A stretch of 64,000 nucleotides of DNA from an uncultured Acidobacteriota bacterium (GCA_963807925.1 CAWEDP010000003.1:98237-162236); one strand, 5' to 3'. Counted from the stretch's first letter, positions 26,538 through 36,578 are shown. Notes: generated by a model not told the origin, from the letters alone. Program-made: numbers and translations.

Positions 26538-27242
26538 ATGGCTGTCGATCTGCTGGTCTTTGGGCCGCATCCTGACGATCTGGAAATTGGTCTCGGCGGC
26601 ACGATTGCGCGCCACGTCGCGGCCGGGCTGACGGTGGGGCTGTGCGATCTGACCGGCGGCGAGATGGGCAGCAACGGCAACGTGCCGGAGCGCCTGGCCG
26701 AGAGCGAGGCGGCGCGCGCGGTGCTGGGCGCCGCGTGGCGCGACAACCTCCGGTGGCCCGACCGCCGCATCGGTCGCGATCCCGGCCACCTCGAACAGGC
26801 CGTCGCCTTCATCCGACAGCACCGGCCGCGCACGATTGCCGCGCCGTACTGGTCGGATCGCCATCCCGATCACGTGGCCGCGAGCCAGGTGATCACCGAG
26901 GCCGCGTTCAATGCCGGCCTGCGCCGCTACCCCTCGGAGGGCGAGGCCTGGAAGGCAGACTGGATCTGCTACTACTTCATCAACGACTCGGCGCCGCCGT
27001 CGTTCCTCGTCGACGTCTCGGCGCACTACGACCGCAAGCGACAGGCGCTCGACTGTCACGCGAGCCAGTTCCAGGCCGCGCTGCCCGGGGCGGCGGCCAC
27101 GCGGTTGAACACGCCGCTGTTCCGGCAGCTCATCGAGAGCCGCGACGCGCAGTTCGGCGCGCTGGCCGGCGTGGCGTGGGCCGAGGGCCTCGTCGTGCGC
27201 GAGCCGCTGCTTCGATCCAGCCTCCTGAGACCCATCGCATGA
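26538..27242 (+). CDS. bshB1: bacillithiol biosynthesis deacetylase
   Basis: PHPDDLE, DLTGGEMGSNG, DRHPDH, HASQF; ATGA overlap with bshA. Confidence 0.88.
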   Translation: MAVDLLVFGPHPDDLEIGLGGTIARHVAAGLTVGLCDLTGGEMGSNGNVPERLAESEAARAVLGAAWRDNLRWPDRRIGRDPGHLEQAVAFIRQHRPRTIAAPYWSDRHPDHVAASQVITEAAFNAGLRRYPSEGEAWKADWICYYFINDSAPPSFLVDVSAHYDRKRQALDCHASQFQAALPGAAATRLNTPLFRQLIESRDAQFGALAGVAWAEGLVVREPLLRSSLLRPIA

Positions 27243-28375
27243 ACGTCGGCATCATCTGCTACGCGTCGGTCGGCGGGAGCGGCGTGATTGCCACCGAGCT
27301 GGGGAAGACGCTCGCGTCGCGCGGCCATCGCGTTCACATTCTGAGCAGCGATACGCCGTTCCGGCTGAGCGACTATCAGCCCGGGTTGTCGTTTCACCGT
27401 GTGGAGGCGCCGACCTATCCGCTGTTCCGCGAGCCGCAGTATCTGCTGTCGCTCGCGAACAAGACGGTGCAGGTCGCGCGCGACGAGCGGCTGGACGTCA
27501 TCCACGCGCACTACGCGATCCCTCACGCGACGGCCGCGTACCTCGCGAGGCAAATCCTGGCGGCGTCGCACGATCGCGTGCCGCCGAAGGTCATCACGAC
27601 GCTGCACGGGACCGACATCACGCTCCTCGGCAGCGATCCCTCCTATTCGGAAACCGTCGCGTTCTGCATCGACCAATCCGACGGTGTGACGGCGGTGTCG
27701 GAAAGCCTCAAGGCCGACACGCAGCGGGCGCTCGGCGTGGGGCGCGACATCCGCGTCATCCCGAATTTCCTCGACTGCTCGGTCCACCATCGGCTGAACG
27801 TGCCGGCGCTGCGCCGGCGCTTCGCGAGCGACGACGAGAAGATCGTCATCCACGTCTCGAACTTCCGTCCCGTGAAGCGGGTGTCGGCGGCGGTCGAGAT
27901 CTTCGCGGCGCTCGCCCGCGACGTTCCTTCGCGGCTGCTGATGGTCGGCGACGGTCCCGATCTGGGGGAGGCCGTCCAGCGGGCGCGCGCGCTCGGCGTC
28001 GCCGATCACGTCCATTTCCTCGGCGAGCAGGATCAGGTGACGTCGCTGTTGTCGATCTCCGACGTCTTTTTGCTGCCCTCCGCGCAGGAGAGCTTCGGCC
28101 TCGCGGCGCTCGAGGCGATGGCGTGCGAAGTGCCGGTCGTCGCGTCGCGCGTCGGCGGACTTCCTGAAGTCATCGAGCACGAGGTCACCGGCTTTCTCCA
28201 TGCCCCCGAGGATCTCGCGGCGATGGTCCGCTCGGCGATGGCGGTCCTGACCGACTGCCCGCTCCACGACCGTGTCGCGGCGGCCGCCCGCGTCGTGGTC
28301 CACGAGCAGTTCTGCGACGAGAAGATCGTCCCGGTGTACGAGGCGTATTACGAGGAAATCCTGGCTTCCAGCTGA
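27239..28375 (+). CDS. bshA: N-acetyl-alpha-D-glucosaminyl L-malate synthase (GT4)
   Basis: GIICYASVGGSGVIATELG, HAHYAIPHA, TTLHGTDIT, HVSNFRPVKR, ESFGLAALEAM. Confidence 0.94.
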   Translation: MNVGIICYASVGGSGVIATELGKTLASRGHRVHILSSDTPFRLSDYQPGLSFHRVEAPTYPLFREPQYLLSLANKTVQVARDERLDVIHAHYAIPHATAAYLARQILAASHDRVPPKVITTLHGTDITLLGSDPSYSETVAFCIDQSDGVTAVSESLKADTQRALGVGRDIRVIPNFLDCSVHHRLNVPALRRRFASDDEKIVIHVSNFRPVKRVSAAVEIFAALARDVPSRLLMVGDGPDLGEAVQRARALGVADHVHFLGEQDQVTSLLSISDVFLLPSAQESFGLAALEAMACEVPVVASRVGGLPEVIEHEVTGFLHAPEDLAAMVRSAMAVLTDCPLHDRVAAAARVVVHEQFCDEKIVPVYEAYYEEILASS

Positions 28376-31244: not shown

Positions 31245-31766
31245 TCAGTCCGATTTTCCGGGCGACCGTGCCAGCCAGCGGAAGAACAGAATCACGATCG
31301 CGGCCGGGATGAACGGCCCCCACCACGCCGTCAGCCCGATTGCCCCCAGCGTCGTCGAGGCCCAGCTGACGAAGATCATGATCGCGCCCGCCCAGGCCAG
31401 CGCGCTCACCAGGTTCAGCACGCTGAACTTCAGCGCGTGCATGCCGGCGTACGCGCACGCGATCGGGATCGCCGTCCGCAGTCCGGGCAGGAAGCGGCTG
31501 GCCAGCACGAGGCCGGTCTCGTGCGCGTGCACGTGCACGATCACGCGGTCGCGGTACCTGGCGAGGCGCGGGAACCGGTCGAGCCAGTGAATGCGGCCGC
31601 GGAGCAGGTAGAACCAGATCTGATCCCCGGTGGCGCCGCCGAGCGCGCCGCACGCGAGAACCGCCGGCCACATGAGCTCACCGCGCACGGCGCGCGCGCA
31701 CATCGCGCTGTAGTACGCCTCGCCTTCGAGGATGGCGGCGATGTAGATCGGAAGATAGGTGAACAC
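31245..31766 (-). CDS. DedA/VTT family membrane protein
   Basis: LEGE, GDQIWFYL, SRFLPGLR, FSVLNLVSALAW. Confidence 0.88.
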   Translation of the reverse strand: MFTYLPIYIAAILEGEAYYSAMCARAVRGELMWPAVLACGALGGATGDQIWFYLLRGRIHWLDRFPRLARYRDRVIVHVHAHETGLVLASRFLPGLRTAIPIACAYAGMHALKFSVLNLVSALAWAGAIMIFVSWASTTLGAIGLTAWWGPFIPAAIVILFFRWLARSPGKSD

Positions 31767-31826: not shown

Positions 31827-33108
31827 TCAGGACGAGGTGGTGGCGGTCTGCCGTCGCGGAATCGCCTGCGCCAGGACGTCGCGGACCGTGGCGCCGACGC
31901 GCTCGATCTGCTCGCGTGTCAGGCCGGCGTAGATGGGTATCTGCATCGCCTGGGCGGCGCGCCGCGCACCCTCGGCTTCCGCGGTCGCGCCCGCAAACAG
32001 CTCCATGTCCGGCGGCACGTCGACGTGAAGCGTTTCGATGTCGATGCCGCGCCGGACAGAGCGTACCACGAGCGCGTCGCGCGCGGGTCCGTCAGGCCCG
32101 TACAGACAGGTACTGATAGTAGACGTGCGTGCGATCCGGCGGCACGTACGGGACCTGGATGCCCGGCAGGCGGCCGAGCACCCCATCCATGTAGAGGGCA
32201 TTCGCCTGCACCTGCGCGGTCCACCCGTCGAGGTGCCTCATCGCCTGGAGGCCGATCGCGGCCTGCACGTTGGGAAAGCGCTCCGTGTAGGCCTCCGGCA
32301 GCGGGGTGAGGGACCGAATCTTCTCCCAGAGGAACACGTCGGGGTTGGCGTCGACAAGCGACGACGCCCAGAGCACCGGGAACAGCGAGATCGAGAAGAC
32401 CCACGGCTTGACGAAGATTCGCTGCAGGCGGCCCATGAGCAGGCGATTGCGCACACGTTTTTCGCTCGGCCACGGCAGCCCGTCGACGATCGCGCGCACA
32501 CGCGATGCCACGGCGGGATCCTGCACGAGCGCCATGCCGCCGCCGTAGCAGTTCAGCGGCTTGAGCGTCTGAAAACTGAACAACGCGCCGGTGCCGAACG
32601 TGCCGACCGACCGCCCCCTGTAGGTGGCGCCGAGCGCGTGCGCACAGTCCTCGAGGACGATCAGGTCGTGCCGTCCGGCGATGTCGAGCAGCCGATCCAT
32701 GTCGCACGGCAGGCCGTACAGGTGAGTGGGGACGATCGCCCGCGTCTTCTCGGTGACGAGCCGTTCGACCGAGGCCGGATCGATATTGAACGTTCGCGGA
32801 TCGACGTCGGCGAAGACGACGGTCAGTCCCGCCGCCCGCGCCAGCTCGGGCACGACCCAGAAGGTCAGGGCGGGGAAGATGATCTCGGAGCCCGGCGGAA
32901 GGTCGAGCGCCTCGAGGATGTGATAGAAGGCCATCCGGCCGTACGCCGTGGAAACCGCCGTCCCGCCGCCGACCCGCTGCTCGAACACGCGCTCGAACTC
33001 CGCGATGAGCGGACCCTGGACGAATTCACCGCGCACCTTGCAGGCGGCGACGACGTCCTCGGTTTCGGAGAAGACGCGCGCTCCGTAGCGCGAGATGGCT
33101 GCACGCAT
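31827..33108 (-). CDS. DegT/DnrJ/EryC1/StrS PLP aminotransferase, with a +1 frameshift near 32110
   Basis: PTHLYGLPCD, EDCAHALGA, FSFQTLKP; C-terminus (QIPIYAGLTREQI) lies in another frame (31827..32201), restored by deleting one base at 32109-32110. Confidence 0.85.
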
Positions 33109-33247: not shown

Positions 33248-34642
33248 TCAGCAGGTGACGGGGCGCGAGATGTCGGCGATCTCCTCGCGGGCGTGGCGAT
33301 CGTTCACGCGCTCGTCCATGCGGCTGACCCAGTCGAGGACGCTGCCGTTCTGGATCTTCAGGAAGTTCGCCAGATACGACGGGCGCATGTAGAAGCGCTT
33401 GTACGCGGCGCCGAGCAGGAAGCGCAGCTCCCGGTCCGTCAGATTCGGATGGCGGAAGGTGGGCGTGTAGCCGTCGAAGCGCTCCCAGTCGGTCTCGGTC
33501 AGGAGCGGCTCGATCTGCTTGAACATCGGCGTGCCCGGATACGGCGTCAGGATCTTGAACTGGGCGAAGGTCGACCCGATGTCGGTGGCGTAGTCGATCG
33601 TCGCCGCAATGGAATTCCAGTCGTCCTGCAGAAAGCCGAGCACGTAGAACGCCGCGGTCACGATGCCGCGCTTTCGGCAGTGATCGATGATCTCGCGCTG
33701 GTGCGCCTCAGGGATGGGGCGGCGTCCCGATTTCTTCAGCGTGGCGGGCGACAGCGATTCGACGCCGAAGCTCATCGCGCGAAACCCGGCGGCATGCAGT
33801 CGATCCAGCAGATCGACGTCGAGCCGATCGAGCCGGGTCTCGGCTTCGAAGGTCAGCACCAGTCCGCGCGCCTCGATGCCGTCGCACAGCTCGATCATGC
33901 GCTCGCGCCGCTCGGTGAACAGCGGATCCCGGAAGATCATGTACGGCCGGCGATACTGGTCGCACAGCCGTTCCATCTCGTCGAGGATGTTGGCGATGGA
34001 GCGCGCCCGATACCCCGCGAGAATCCGGTGCGGGCAGTAGGTGCAGAACTCAGGGCATCCGCGGCTCGCCAGCAGCGGAAAGCCGCCGCCCACCGGACGC
34101 GACGACCACCGGACGCCGAGCTTCCGCCCCGCGTCGGTCACGAGATCCCACCGCGGGAACGGCAGGGAATCGAGGTCGTTGATCTGCTCGCTCACGACGA
34201 CCCCGCGCGGAATGTCGCCCTGTGCGATGCGCATCACGCCGCCCTCGGGCTCGCCGTTCAGGATGAAATCGCAGTGATCCTGGAAGAGATGCGGCATTTT
34301 GGACGCCGTGATGCCGACGAATCCGACCTTGACGCCGCGGGCGCGCATCCGCTCGGCCCAGGCGGTCTCGTTCCGGTAGTCCACGAGCGACGACAGGATC
34401 AGCGCGACCTCTCCGTCCACCTGCTCTCCGCGGCTCCAGGCCACCTCGTGGCCGGCGCGCGCGAGGATGGCGGCCATGTACGCCATGTGCACGCTCGGCA
34501 CGTCGTGAAACTGATGTTTCAGCCACGCGATCACGGTCGTCACGCGCGAGAACGGATCCAGCCGCGATCCGTAGCCGCCCACCACCGTATCCTTGCTGAC
34601 AAAGCCGCGATTCGACTGCACGTCTGCGAGAATCACCCGCAT
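33248..34642 (-). CDS. B12-binding (class B-like) radical SAM protein
   Basis: GEPE, DLDSLPFPRWD, SRGCPEFCTYC (CxxxCxxC), FGVES, TPYPGT. Confidence 0.9.
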   Translation of the reverse strand: MRVILADVQSNRGFVSKDTVVGGYGSRLDPFSRVTTVIAWLKHQFHDVPSVHMAYMAAILARAGHEVAWSRGEQVDGEVALILSSLVDYRNETAWAERMRARGVKVGFVGITASKMPHLFQDHCDFILNGEPEGGVMRIAQGDIPRGVVVSEQINDLDSLPFPRWDLVTDAGRKLGVRWSSRPVGGGFPLLASRGCPEFCTYCPHRILAGYRARSIANILDEMERLCDQYRRPYMIFRDPLFTERRERMIELCDGIEARGLVLTFEAETRLDRLDVDLLDRLHAAGFRAMSFGVESLSPATLKKSGRRPIPEAHQREIIDHCRKRGIVTAAFYVLGFLQDDWNSIAATIDYATDIGSTFAQFKILTPYPGTPMFKQIEPLLTETDWERFDGYTPTFRHPNLTDRELRFLLGAAYKRFYMRPSYLANFLKIQNGSVLDWVSRMDERVNDRHAREEIADISRPVTC

Positions 34643-34743
34643 CGGTCACCTCATGGTTGACGAACCTGACACCGCTCAGCCGTGCGCGCCGTACGCGCGG
34701 GCCGCGATGGCCGTGCGTCGATTCGACTGGCTGATACACCAGG

Positions 34744-35190
34744 CTACGCGGGTGACGAAGGAGGACCTCGGGGTGAACGGGGAGACGCGACGCTAACGAA
34801 GGTCGGGTGCAGCGTCGGGGGTGAGAGCACGCCGAGCGGCCTGAGGCCGGCCGGGAGCAGGTCGTCGCCGCCGACCGCCGCGCTCGTCTGCAGCGCGGCC
34901 GTGTCGTGACCGGCGAGCGGCATCGTCTGGCCGCGCCCGAGGTAGTCGGGGACGCTGCGATGGACCAGCCGTTCGCTCCGCAACAGATACTTCGCGACAT
35001 GACGGCCCGAGCGTTGCACGCCGTTCCGCGCGCGGACCCGACGGAGCGCCGGCCGTTCATCGGCCGCGCGACTGACGCGGGAGTGGCGCCGCGCCGGCTG
35101 CGCCGCTTCGGCGCTGGGGACGCTCAGCAACCAGACCGCGAGCGTTCCGCACAGCGCGAAGCCCAGTCGCACGCCGGACGAGAGTCGCAT
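34744..35190 (-). CDS. putative exported leader/arrest peptide (signal peptide + Arg-rich linker + C-terminal RGPP)
   Basis: MRLSSGVRLGFALCGTLAVWLLSVPSAEA signal; ends SPRSPRGPPSSPA, 101 nt before the radical SAM start. Confidence 0.65.
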   Translation of the reverse strand: MRLSSGVRLGFALCGTLAVWLLSVPSAEAAQPARRHSRVSRAADERPALRRVRARNGVQRSGRHVAKYLLRSERLVHRSVPDYLGRGQTMPLAGHDTAALQTSAAVGGDDLLPAGLRPLGVLSPPTLHPTFVSVASPRSPRGPPSSPA

Positions 35191-35291
35191 AGAAGGGCTG
35201 TAGAATTCCTGTTGGAGCCAAACGTAACTATCCCACACCACAGCGGTAGATTCAAGAACTCGCCGCTTCAGCCGCCTACGCGCGTTCGTCC

Positions 35292-36578
35292 ATGAATCTG
35301 CGCCGCTTTTCCTCCGTCATCGTCGTCGGCGCGGGGCCTGCCGGCGCCACGGCGGCCCGTGTCCTGGCGCTCGCGGGCGTCCGGGTCGTTCTCCTCGACC
35401 GATCGGCCTTTCCGCGCAACAAACCGTGCGGAGGCGGCATCAGCGGCCGCGTGCTCCGCCGCTTTCCGTTCCTCCAATCCGAGCTCTGCCGCATCCCGAT
35501 GCACGCGGTGAGCCGTCTACGACTCGAAGGACCCGACGGCGAGGCAGCAGTCGTCGAGTCGCCCGAGACCGGTGCGGTGATGGTTCGGCGCGTCGAGTTC
35601 GACGCGCTCCTGGTGTCGCTCGCGCAAGACGCCGGTGCCGAGCTCGTCTCCGACGTCGATATCGTCGGTGCGACGGCCGGTTGCGACGCCGTCTCGCTGG
35701 TCTCGCGCGACGGCCGCCGTTTCAGCGCCCCGGCGGTCGTCGCCGCCGACGGCGTCCACAGCGTCGTCGGTCGTCGGCTGGGCATCAACCCGGGCTGGCC
35801 GTCACACGCGCTGGCGCTCGACATGATGGAAGAAACGCCTCGCGTCGAGCTCCGCGATGTGGATCCCTCGACCCTGTGGGTGGCCTACGGGTACGACCCC
35901 CAACGGCCAGGAGGCGCAGGGCGGAGGAACGGAAGCCACGTGAAGGTGGCGGAAGGCTATGCCTATATCTTTCCCAAGCGGGATCACGTGAACGTCGGGA
36001 TTGGCTACGTGCTCTCGTACTACCGCCGGGCGGTGGGTACGCCGCCCTACGAGCTCCAGCGCGGGCTGGTCGAGGAGCTGTGCGCGCGCGGCATCGTCCG
36101 CGGGCAGTCGGTGCGCCGATTCTTCACTCCGTTTCTGATCCCGGTCGGCGGGCCGCTCCGGCAACCGGGTCGCGGACGCGTGCTGCTGGCGGGGGACGCC
36201 GGCGGGTTCGTCAACGCGTTCACCGCCGAGGGCATCTACTACGCGATGGTCACCGGCGAGCTGGCGGCGCGCGCCATCCTCGACGCTGCGGGCAATCCCG
36301 GCGCCCTCGTGCCGCGGTACCGCCGGGCGTGCGAGCGCGAGATCGGCCCGGAGCTTCGGGATTCCGTGAGCATTCAGAAGTATCTGTTCGCCGATCGCGG
36401 ACGCATCGCGCGCGTCATCCGGAACGCGAACCGCTATCCCGCGACGACGCGGGCCCTCCTGGAGTATGCGACGGGACGGCGATCGTACCGATCCGTCCGG
36501 CGTCACCTGCTCGCACGGTTCCCGCCGCTTGCCCTCCGGATGGCCTGGGACCGGGCGGCGGCCTTCTGGGGCGGCTGA
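35292..36578 (+). CDS. geranylgeranyl reductase family flavoprotein
   Basis: VGAGPAG, FPRNKPCGGGI, RRVEFDALL, YIFPK, GDAGGFVNAFTAEGIYYA. Confidence 0.88.
   Translation: MNLRRFSSVIVVGAGPAGATAARVLALAGVRVVLLDRSAFPRNKPCGGGISGRVLRRFPFLQSELCRIPMHAVSRLRLEGPDGEAAVVESPETGAVMVRRVEFDALLVSLAQDAGAELVSDVDIVGATAGCDAVSLVSRDGRRFSAPAVVAADGVHSVVGRRLGINPGWPSHALALDMMEETPRVELRDVDPSTLWVAYGYDPQRPGGAGRRNGSHVKVAEGYAYIFPKRDHVNVGIGYVLSYYRRAVGTPPYELQRGLVEELCARGIVRGQSVRRFFTPFLIPVGGPLRQPGRGRVLLAGDAGGFVNAFTAEGIYYAMVTGELAARAILDAAGNPGALVPRYRRACEREIGPELRDSVSIQKYLFADRGRIARVIRNANRYPATTRALLEYATGRRSYRSVRRHLLARFPPLALRMAWDRAAAFWGG

Follow-up and report, generated by a model that had tools for sequence, protein, structure and literature searches.

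Arrest peptides ending in RAPP or RGPP that lie upstream of diverse genes are described as a class by Fujiwara et al. (EMBO J 2025, PMC12992588), who report that in several contexts arrest was strongest with RGPP and that seven of seven Streptomyces proteins with C-terminal RAPP or RGPP were arrested. SecM, ApdA/ApdP and the RQH-family substrates share a signal peptide, a disordered linker and a C-terminal arrest motif, and a stem sequestering the next gene's Shine-Dalgarno (SD) sequence is opened by the stalled ribosome, as reported in PMC10987492. Here, we describe a candidate of this kind in a 64,000-nucleotide (nt) stretch of DNA from an uncultured Acidobacteriota bacterium (GCA_963807925.1, CAWEDP010000003.1:98237-162236), which we refer to as the window; it lies on contig C3 of a 4.78-Mb assembly that is 96% complete. 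The candidate is an upstream open reading frame (uORF) of 148 amino acids (aa) on the minus strand (34744..35190), placed before genes for a radical SAM enzyme, a DegT-family aminotransferase and a DedA-family membrane protein. We put the probability that this conserved uORF, with its predicted export signal, controls the operon through arrest at RGPP at about 0.75.

The uORF has the features shared by the published class: fewer than 300 aa with the motif near the C-terminus, a predicted localisation signal, and a conserved position upstream of a gene in the same direction (PMC12992588). The targets differ. SecM, ApdA/ApdP, VemP and MifM precede SecA, SecDF or YidC, whereas the uORF precedes radical SAM, DegT and DedA genes; none of these encodes a Sec or YidC component, and a direct feedback loop is therefore lacking. 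The sequence-only reading that drew attention to this locus gave sec and yidC genes as the classic targets, but targets outside that set had already been published as a class, and those named in PMC12992588 comprise sec genes, TonB receptors, YcnI, PCu(A)C, PepSY, DsbA/thioredoxin and extracytoplasmic function (ECF) sigma factors. The main text of that paper does not mention radical SAM, aminotransferase, TolC, efflux, VCBS or calcium, though the lists in its Fig. 4 and Appendix may differ. Among the papers listed by our literature searches, we found no description of this uORF family, of its operon target or of an FG-GAP domain in an arrest peptide; the gene lists of PMC12992588 could include the pairing.

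CruR resembles the uORF in its length (about 145 aa), its export signal and a RAPP motif three residues from its end (PMC9426467), and the CruR/CutF systems also share with it a conserved motif about 45 residues further upstream and control of a non-sec operon in cis. CutF-like genes often precede CusC/CzcC-CusA/CzcA operons (PMC9973294), as do FG-GAP-type uORFs described below. However, neither the 40 aligned members of the uORF family nor the source genome had a match to DUF2946 (PF11162), no CXXC occurs in the alignment, and an acidic patch or an FG-GAP domain would be the sensor here, unlike in CruR and CutF. None of the 40 members matched the SecM Pfam model, and placement with SecM clusters in the ESM Atlas at 0.92, on 133 shared features and with recognition below threshold, is a weak lead. 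The uORF is probably regulatory; within the published class it would represent a family not described before, whose targets and candidate sensor domain are also new. If so, force-released arrest peptides would extend from translocon and copper genes to an operon of envelope-chemistry enzymes; the basic mechanism is already known, which limits the surprise.

A conserved frame ending in RGPP

The frame runs from 35190 to 34744, its RGPP codons occupy 34770-34759 and are followed by four residues and the stop, and 101 nt separate its end from the radical SAM start codon at 34642; the sequence-only reading had located all of these correctly. The protein matched no Pfam or NCBIfam model. An AlphaFold prediction made with 40 homologs contained a single confident helix (residues 5-22), the rest being of low confidence, and no folded domain was predicted in the window copy. 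The helix lies within a predicted Sec signal peptide (residues 1-29; 35104..35190), a feature proposed earlier from the sequence and supported here, as a prediction, by the model helix and by recognizable n-, h- and c-regions, with two Arg, a hydrophobic 12-mer of mean hydropathy 2.19 and an AEA-A site. The column of Ala29 is conserved at 90% or more in the 40-member alignment, and a hydrophobic 12-mer of at least 1.9 was present in 63 of 69 uORFs.

Conservation was followed in the best 80 of 183 radical SAM relatives, 78 of which could be scored, the other two having less than 260 nt upstream. A sense-strand R[AG]PP was found no more than 260 nt upstream of the radical SAM start in 65/78 orthologous loci, compared to 147/3329 sense and 167/3329 antisense control windows (a background of ≈5%); since the loci are kin, the counts are not independent and overstate the support. 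At 74% identity or above, the motif was found in 46/52 loci (one truncated locus counting as a miss), and below that in 19/26, or 22 when RPPP is included. The expectation that orthologs would carry uORFs with a signal peptide and RGPP or RAPP was thus borne out. The 69 uORFs, including the window copy, comprise 47 with RGPP, 19 with RAPP and three with RPPP, and in 67 of them 2-8 residues separate the end of the motif from the stop, exactly three in 45, as in CruR. Two loci (L047 and L091) lack the usual stop behind RGPP, and their frame reaches or passes the radical SAM start, a natural test of the role of the stop.

The pooled ratio of non-synonymous to synonymous substitution rates (dN/dS) was 0.33 for the uORF (18 pairs), and for its last 54 codons it was 0.27 in frame, compared to 1.23 and 1.97 in the other two frames. 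The uORF frame is under purifying selection, and the uORF is a real, conserved gene tied to the operon. Profile searches with the near family, to which the window copy belongs, gave a match in 61 of 118 genomes of the taxonomic family, at essentially one locus per genome, while near-full-length matches in a 301-genome sample of the phylum were confined to the same order. RGPP and RAPP are scarce among the likely genes of the source genome (6 and 12, compared to 40 and 97 for AGPP and AAPP). A genome-wide habit of RGPP/RAPP uORFs was considered and rejected: a crude filter returned two in the source genome, and control motifs returned one to four each.

Only the R, P and P of the motif are invariant across the 40 aligned near-family uORFs. 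The motif stands in the segment SPRSPRGPP (34759..34785), the last in a series of segments that can be ordered by distance from the proline expected in the ribosomal P site. A basic linker 56-110 residues away (34930..35094) is predicted to be disordered, with a predicted local distance difference test (pLDDT) score of 52-59, and has a net charge of +12 in the window copy; the family median is +8 and none of the 40 members is negative. At 30-55 residues follows an acidic D..AIQ segment (34852..34929), of which the window has a weak copy (D96, D109 and D110). This segment is net negative in 38/40 near-family members, its Asp/Glu fraction peaks at 0.40-0.65 at 48-51 residues, and an AIQ-like motif lies 44-45 residues before the motif R in 34/38. 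An LxPLGxL segment (34825..34845), predicted to lie inside the exit tunnel, also keeps a fixed distance: of the 35 rows that match the pattern, 33 have LxPLG at 24-25 residues before R.

Proposed coupling of the uORF to the radical SAM gene

By analogy to ApdA/ApdP, CruR and the seven Streptomyces peptides, the ribosome would stall with the two prolines of RGPP occupying the P and A sites, the position that toeprinting gave for CruR. A force exerted on the nascent chain from the membrane side would release the stall, and a long stall would either hold the radical SAM start open or keep the termination factor Rho off the transcript. The operon would then likely be on when the pull is weak.

The uORF and the radical SAM-DegT-DedA operon appear, from the DNA sequence, to share one transcript. 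A predicted sigma-70-type promoter (35227..35255, minus strand) consists of a -35 element TTGAAT (35255-35250), a 17-nt spacer and an extended -10 element TG-n-GATAGT (35232-35227). An element of this -35/extended -10 type lies ≈40-80 nt before the uORF start, and the strict pattern was found in 24/48 near-family loci. The same strict pattern occurred in 0/48 control windows and in none of 21 other loci; nor did it occur between RGPP and the radical SAM start in any of the 48 near-family loci, which speaks against a separate promoter there, one of the outcomes that had been named as fatal to the proposal. The element of the window falls below the scanner threshold, and a promoter and terminator scan found no promoter at threshold and no minus-strand terminator. 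Where the uORF is gone, in loci L032 and L049, the promoter-like element is kept, 51 and 146 nt before the radical SAM start. This pattern fits a regulatory insert that can be removed from between promoter and operon. In a locus similar to L049 (L006), a short open frame stops 3 nt short of the radical SAM start.

The SD sequence of the radical SAM gene, GAGGUG (34647..34652), was predicted to be paired in every folding window, its G34650 and G34649 being unpaired with a probability of at most 0.01 in all four; its partners were the RGPP codons or a local hairpin. The sequence-only reading had placed complementary segments correctly at GUCACC (34756-34751) and GGUGAC (34650-34645), enclosing CCUG/CAGG and UCAGCC/GGCUGA pairs. 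The two inner helices, which close an intergenic hairpin (34665..34743), were recovered with pair probabilities of 0.43-0.94, but GUCACC:GGUGAC was rejected as the main stem, having a probability of at most 0.01 in all four windows. The SPRSPRGPP codons instead take 0.76 of the SD pairing and form the main anti-SD sequence. In a relative (L046), the tail segment that holds GUCACC carries 0.98 of the SD pairing. The proposal that a stalled ribosome relieves a masked SD is supported insofar as the SD is predicted to be paired when free, with sequence under the expected stall footprint; the helix that had been named is not, and in the window the effect of masking the footprint was small or inconsistent.

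In the wider family the unmasking model performs better. In 32 RGPP loci with short spacers, the predicted partners of the SD region are the Ser-Pro-Arg codons at the motif and immediately ahead of it, and in 29 of these 32 the natural codons made the start harder to open than 20 synonymous shuffles did on average; RAPP and RPPP loci behaved likewise in 16/21. CCT serves as the Pro codon ahead of R in 27/46 RGPP loci, compared to 56/699 in uORF bodies and 4.8% genome-wide, which gives an 8-base-pair anti-SD helix. This helix was 88.8% paired in 29 short-spacer loci, compared to 31-55% when slid. Masking the footprint lowered the opening energy by more than 1 kcal/mol relative to a control mask in 57/68 loci, a count that leaves out one longer-spacer locus and a lenient comparison, since the control mask covers less sequence.

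A number of results weigh against this reading, some of them from the window itself. Opening the window SD cost 7.7 kcal/mol free and 6.1 or 4.9 kcal/mol masked, which is a weak switch, and opening SD and start together cost about 11 kcal/mol free and 8.3-12.2 kcal/mol masked. The natural codons of the window lie at the 20th percentile of synonymous shuffles, and those of long-spacer loci were harder to open in 7/15, with no excess for the group. Covariation did not support the anti-SD helix in the 29 loci (153/500 shuffles scored as high), the SD side barely varying, and RNAalifold did not recover the helix unaided in the same loci. The uORF leader has no well-spaced SD of its own, and the uORF is absent in 11/80 rows of the radical SAM tree in which the operon persists. 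The 181-nt region folded no better than shuffled sequence (z = -0.85), and no Rfam family matched at threshold, one match far below the gathering score being taken as chance. SD unmasking by a stall is thus a good model for the family and an uncertain one for the window copy. We lean towards it as the means of coupling in the family, whereas for the window genome we rate its chances at somewhat under even.

The long spacer and the weak unmasking in the window would suit another form of coupling, in which the stalled ribosome shields a C-rich Rho site at the 3' end of the uORF and release leads to Rho-dependent termination before the radical SAM gene. This mechanism has been reported for CruR (PMC9426467). 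The source genome has two full-length rho genes (G000:C2:1225604-1226845 and C2:2697922-2699157), and the C-over-G skew is 0.36 around the window motif, with a median of 0.26 in 67 loci compared to 0.07 in uORF bodies. However, this skew follows from the Pro and Ser codons, the intergenic skew is -0.02 in the window (median 0.0), and the codon choice of the short-spacer relatives favours SD pairing. We consider Rho coupling a live rival, though an unlikely one.

FG-GAP-type uORFs and candidate signals

The Pfam domain FG-GAP_3 was found in 18 of 19 distant uORFs that occupy the counterpart position before the radical SAM gene; it is absent from the window frame and its clade (40 members). In the model of an FG-GAP-type (FG-type) uORF, residues 31-113 form an eight-stranded domain with pLDDT of 91-96, followed by a disordered tether. 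Foldseek matched this two-blade domain weakly to propellers (best E = 2.6e-3), and the aspartates of its DxDxDG loops vary little or not at all. Counted between the last strand and the P-site Pro, the tether measures 64-79 residues in the 19 members, and 71-75 residues in eight FG-type members not located before a radical SAM gene of the window type. A search with the FG-type alignment matched 34 of 301 order-level genomes, and most of the 30 loci retrieved sit ahead of the same radical SAM gene.

Seven FG-type uORFs are instead ahead of a TolC-like gene, one in the source genome (C2:1859341-1860087) and the others in genomes G070, G024, G029, G018, G034 and G014. The order of this operon is TolC, membrane fusion protein (MFP), CusA/CzcA, and CusA/CzcA scored over the cut-off in both FG-type loci tested. 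The uORF in the source genome, its second (G000:C2:1859341-1860087, plus strand; L188:542-1285), has a predicted signal, two FG-GAP repeats and RAPP, and directly precedes the TolC-like gene and a CusA/CzcA resistance-nodulation-division (RND) pump. At two further loci the FG-type uORF is found directly before DegT or DedA. An MntR/DtxR-like gene lies near the FG-type uORF in G024 and G070. Other settings include an RSPP frame before a different radical SAM gene (L195:225-2531, minus strand) and an RGPP frame before a membrane protein and oxidoreductase pair (L194:1507-5496, plus strand).

Homology between the two uORF types was not supported by profile comparison, which aligned the tail alone; the motif is kept while the N-terminal domains differ completely. 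An FG-type uORF before TolC (L191:4133-4690, minus strand) has TIQNDAPA 45 residues before R, in the register of AIQND in the near family, a hint of common origin from a single sequence. In a quick tree of 80 radical SAM rows (L078 and L084 left out), all 47 near-type rows fell in one clade (Shimodaira-Hasegawa-like approximate likelihood ratio test, SH-aLRT, 100), which also holds five rows lacking a uORF. The FG-type rows split into three lineages whose node is open; with the root unreliable as well, the tree does not show FG-GAP to be ancestral.

These comparisons bear on another alternative, an ordinary small secreted protein that is co-transcribed with the operon and whose RGPP has neither a stall nor a regulatory effect. 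The loci in which the operon persists alone and the weak switch energetics in the source genome would agree with such a protein, and stalling at RGPP is argued by analogy. On the other hand, it would be odd for R, P and P to be the sole invariant residues of an ordinary protein, or for the motif to be retained behind unrelated N-terminal domains and before other operons. The motif ends 37/40 short FG-GAP matches and 0/80 long ones, in a search whose query profile included the tail, and bacterial proteomes are reported to avoid these motifs (PMC12992588). This alternative is improbable.

Control through arrest leaves a choice of signals. Impaired export had been proposed as the trigger; it is one of three candidates here, and we favour general Sec function only tentatively. 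Published distances suggest sensing at or beyond the membrane, leaving the signal unnamed: a periplasmic domain is reported to pull when its end is ≈70 residues from the peptidyl transferase centre (PTC), and a chain of ≈50 residues to extend as far as the distal end of SecYEG (bioRxiv 2021.02.06.430026), matching the tether of ≈73 residues and the acidic patch at ≈50. A five-Asp segment is likewise reported to produce, at about 50 residues, a peak of force that depends on the potential (bioRxiv 310698).

FG-GAP loops can bind cations, and if those described here do so, the uORF might sense an outside divalent cation and not export as such. Ca2+ or another cation would fold the FG-GAP domain and alter the pull, and in the window clade the acidic D..AIQND patch would act as a ligand site in reduced form. 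The confident domain with its conserved aspartates, the tethers near the pulling distance and the CusA/CzcA operons headed by FG-type uORFs are all consistent with this, and the patch occupies the position that CXXC has in CruR (with 45 residues intervening; PMC9426467). According to the descriptions of these two systems, a ligand lengthens the stall in CutF and relieves it in CruR (PMC9973294; bioRxiv 2025.02.05.636593). Against a cation stand the weakness of the propeller matches, the finding that the two uORF types show no homology outside the tail, and the window uORF itself, which has no FG-GAP domain or predicted fold and one Asp in the patch. We hold sensing of a divalent cation to be less likely than not, but only slightly less likely than general Sec function.

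Alternatively, the uORF could read the membrane potential, if the acidic cluster occupies the SecY channel when the ribosome stalls and the potential draws it outward; depolarisation would then prolong the arrest and induce the DedA-containing operon. The position of the Asp/Glu peak, the change from net negative at 30-55 residues to net positive beyond, and the published five-Asp peak are in line with this, and a Burkholderia DedA protein has been tied to membrane potential and to aminoarabinose modification, as reported in PMC7835334. However, a median of 2.5 acidic residues falls at 44-53, and one in the window copy, compared to five consecutive ones in the model system; conservation of the AIQ residues exceeds what charge would require; and the acidic bias of FG-type uORFs is weaker (12/19 and 4/8 net negative). 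Membrane potential acting on the acidic patch is quite unlikely as the signal, and some other signal is less likely still.

A more far-reaching possibility, which we regard as speculative and unlikely in its entirety, is that Vicinamibacteria use one arrest-peptide chassis to read across the inner membrane. In the FG-type, a two-blade domain on a ≈73-residue tether would report divalent cations outside and control both the amino-sugar operon and CusA/CzcA pumps; in the window lineage, the domain would have been replaced by the acidic patch at ≈50 residues, sensing membrane potential or cations in the translocon. Two-component systems control aminoarabinose modification, and such a chassis, if true, would be their translational counterpart. 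Two N-terminal modules at ≈73 and ≈50 residues on the same stall motif before one operon make a natural comparison, and the source of the releasing force in non-Sec arrest peptides, a question raised in PMC12992588, could be addressed with this system.

Downstream operon and neighbouring genes

The first gene of the operon encodes a radical SAM enzyme of 464 aa (33248..34642, minus strand; PF04055), whose nearest solved relative is AprD4 (PDB 6fd2, profile E = 9e-32), a radical SAM diol dehydratase reported to act in the C3 deoxygenation of paromamine (PMC5461906). The match to AprD4 covers the radical SAM core alone, Pfam showed no B12-binding domain, and the protein scored far below all NCBIfam cut-offs (HpnJ, TIGR03471, 98.6 compared to 577.6; AprD4, 88 compared to 500). 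A role in hopanoid synthesis, as for HpnJ, was rejected on this score and because no hopene cyclase was found in the source genome and one was present in just 3 of 61 genomes searched.

It is followed by a DegT/DnrJ/EryC1/StrS sugar aminotransferase (31827..33108, minus strand; PF01041), closest to perosamine synthase among solved structures and resembling perosamine-synthase/ArnB-type aminotransferases. Its frame changes near 32105-32110 in the assembly, where orthologs align continuously, reflecting either an assembly error or a real break. The third gene encodes a DedA/VTT-domain membrane protein (31245..31766, minus strand; PF09335). DegT was present in 74/80 and DedA in 69/80 ortholog loci, and clustering of the neighbourhoods, which over-merged and is weak evidence, gave no recurrent glycosyltransferase family. 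By analogy, the product of the operon is likely an amino or deoxy-amino sugar for the envelope, the envelope role being suggested by DedA (PMC7835334).

Divergent from the uORF, ≈40 nt beyond the predicted -35 element, lies a gene of the geranylgeranyl reductase family (35292-36578, plus strand). A functional link to it was rejected, the gene being beside the operon in just 25/80 loci. Elsewhere in the window, a bacillithiol deacetylase, BshB1, scored over the NCBIfam cut-off and is followed by a glycosyltransferase-like frame (26538-28375, plus strand), in an acidobacterial genome.

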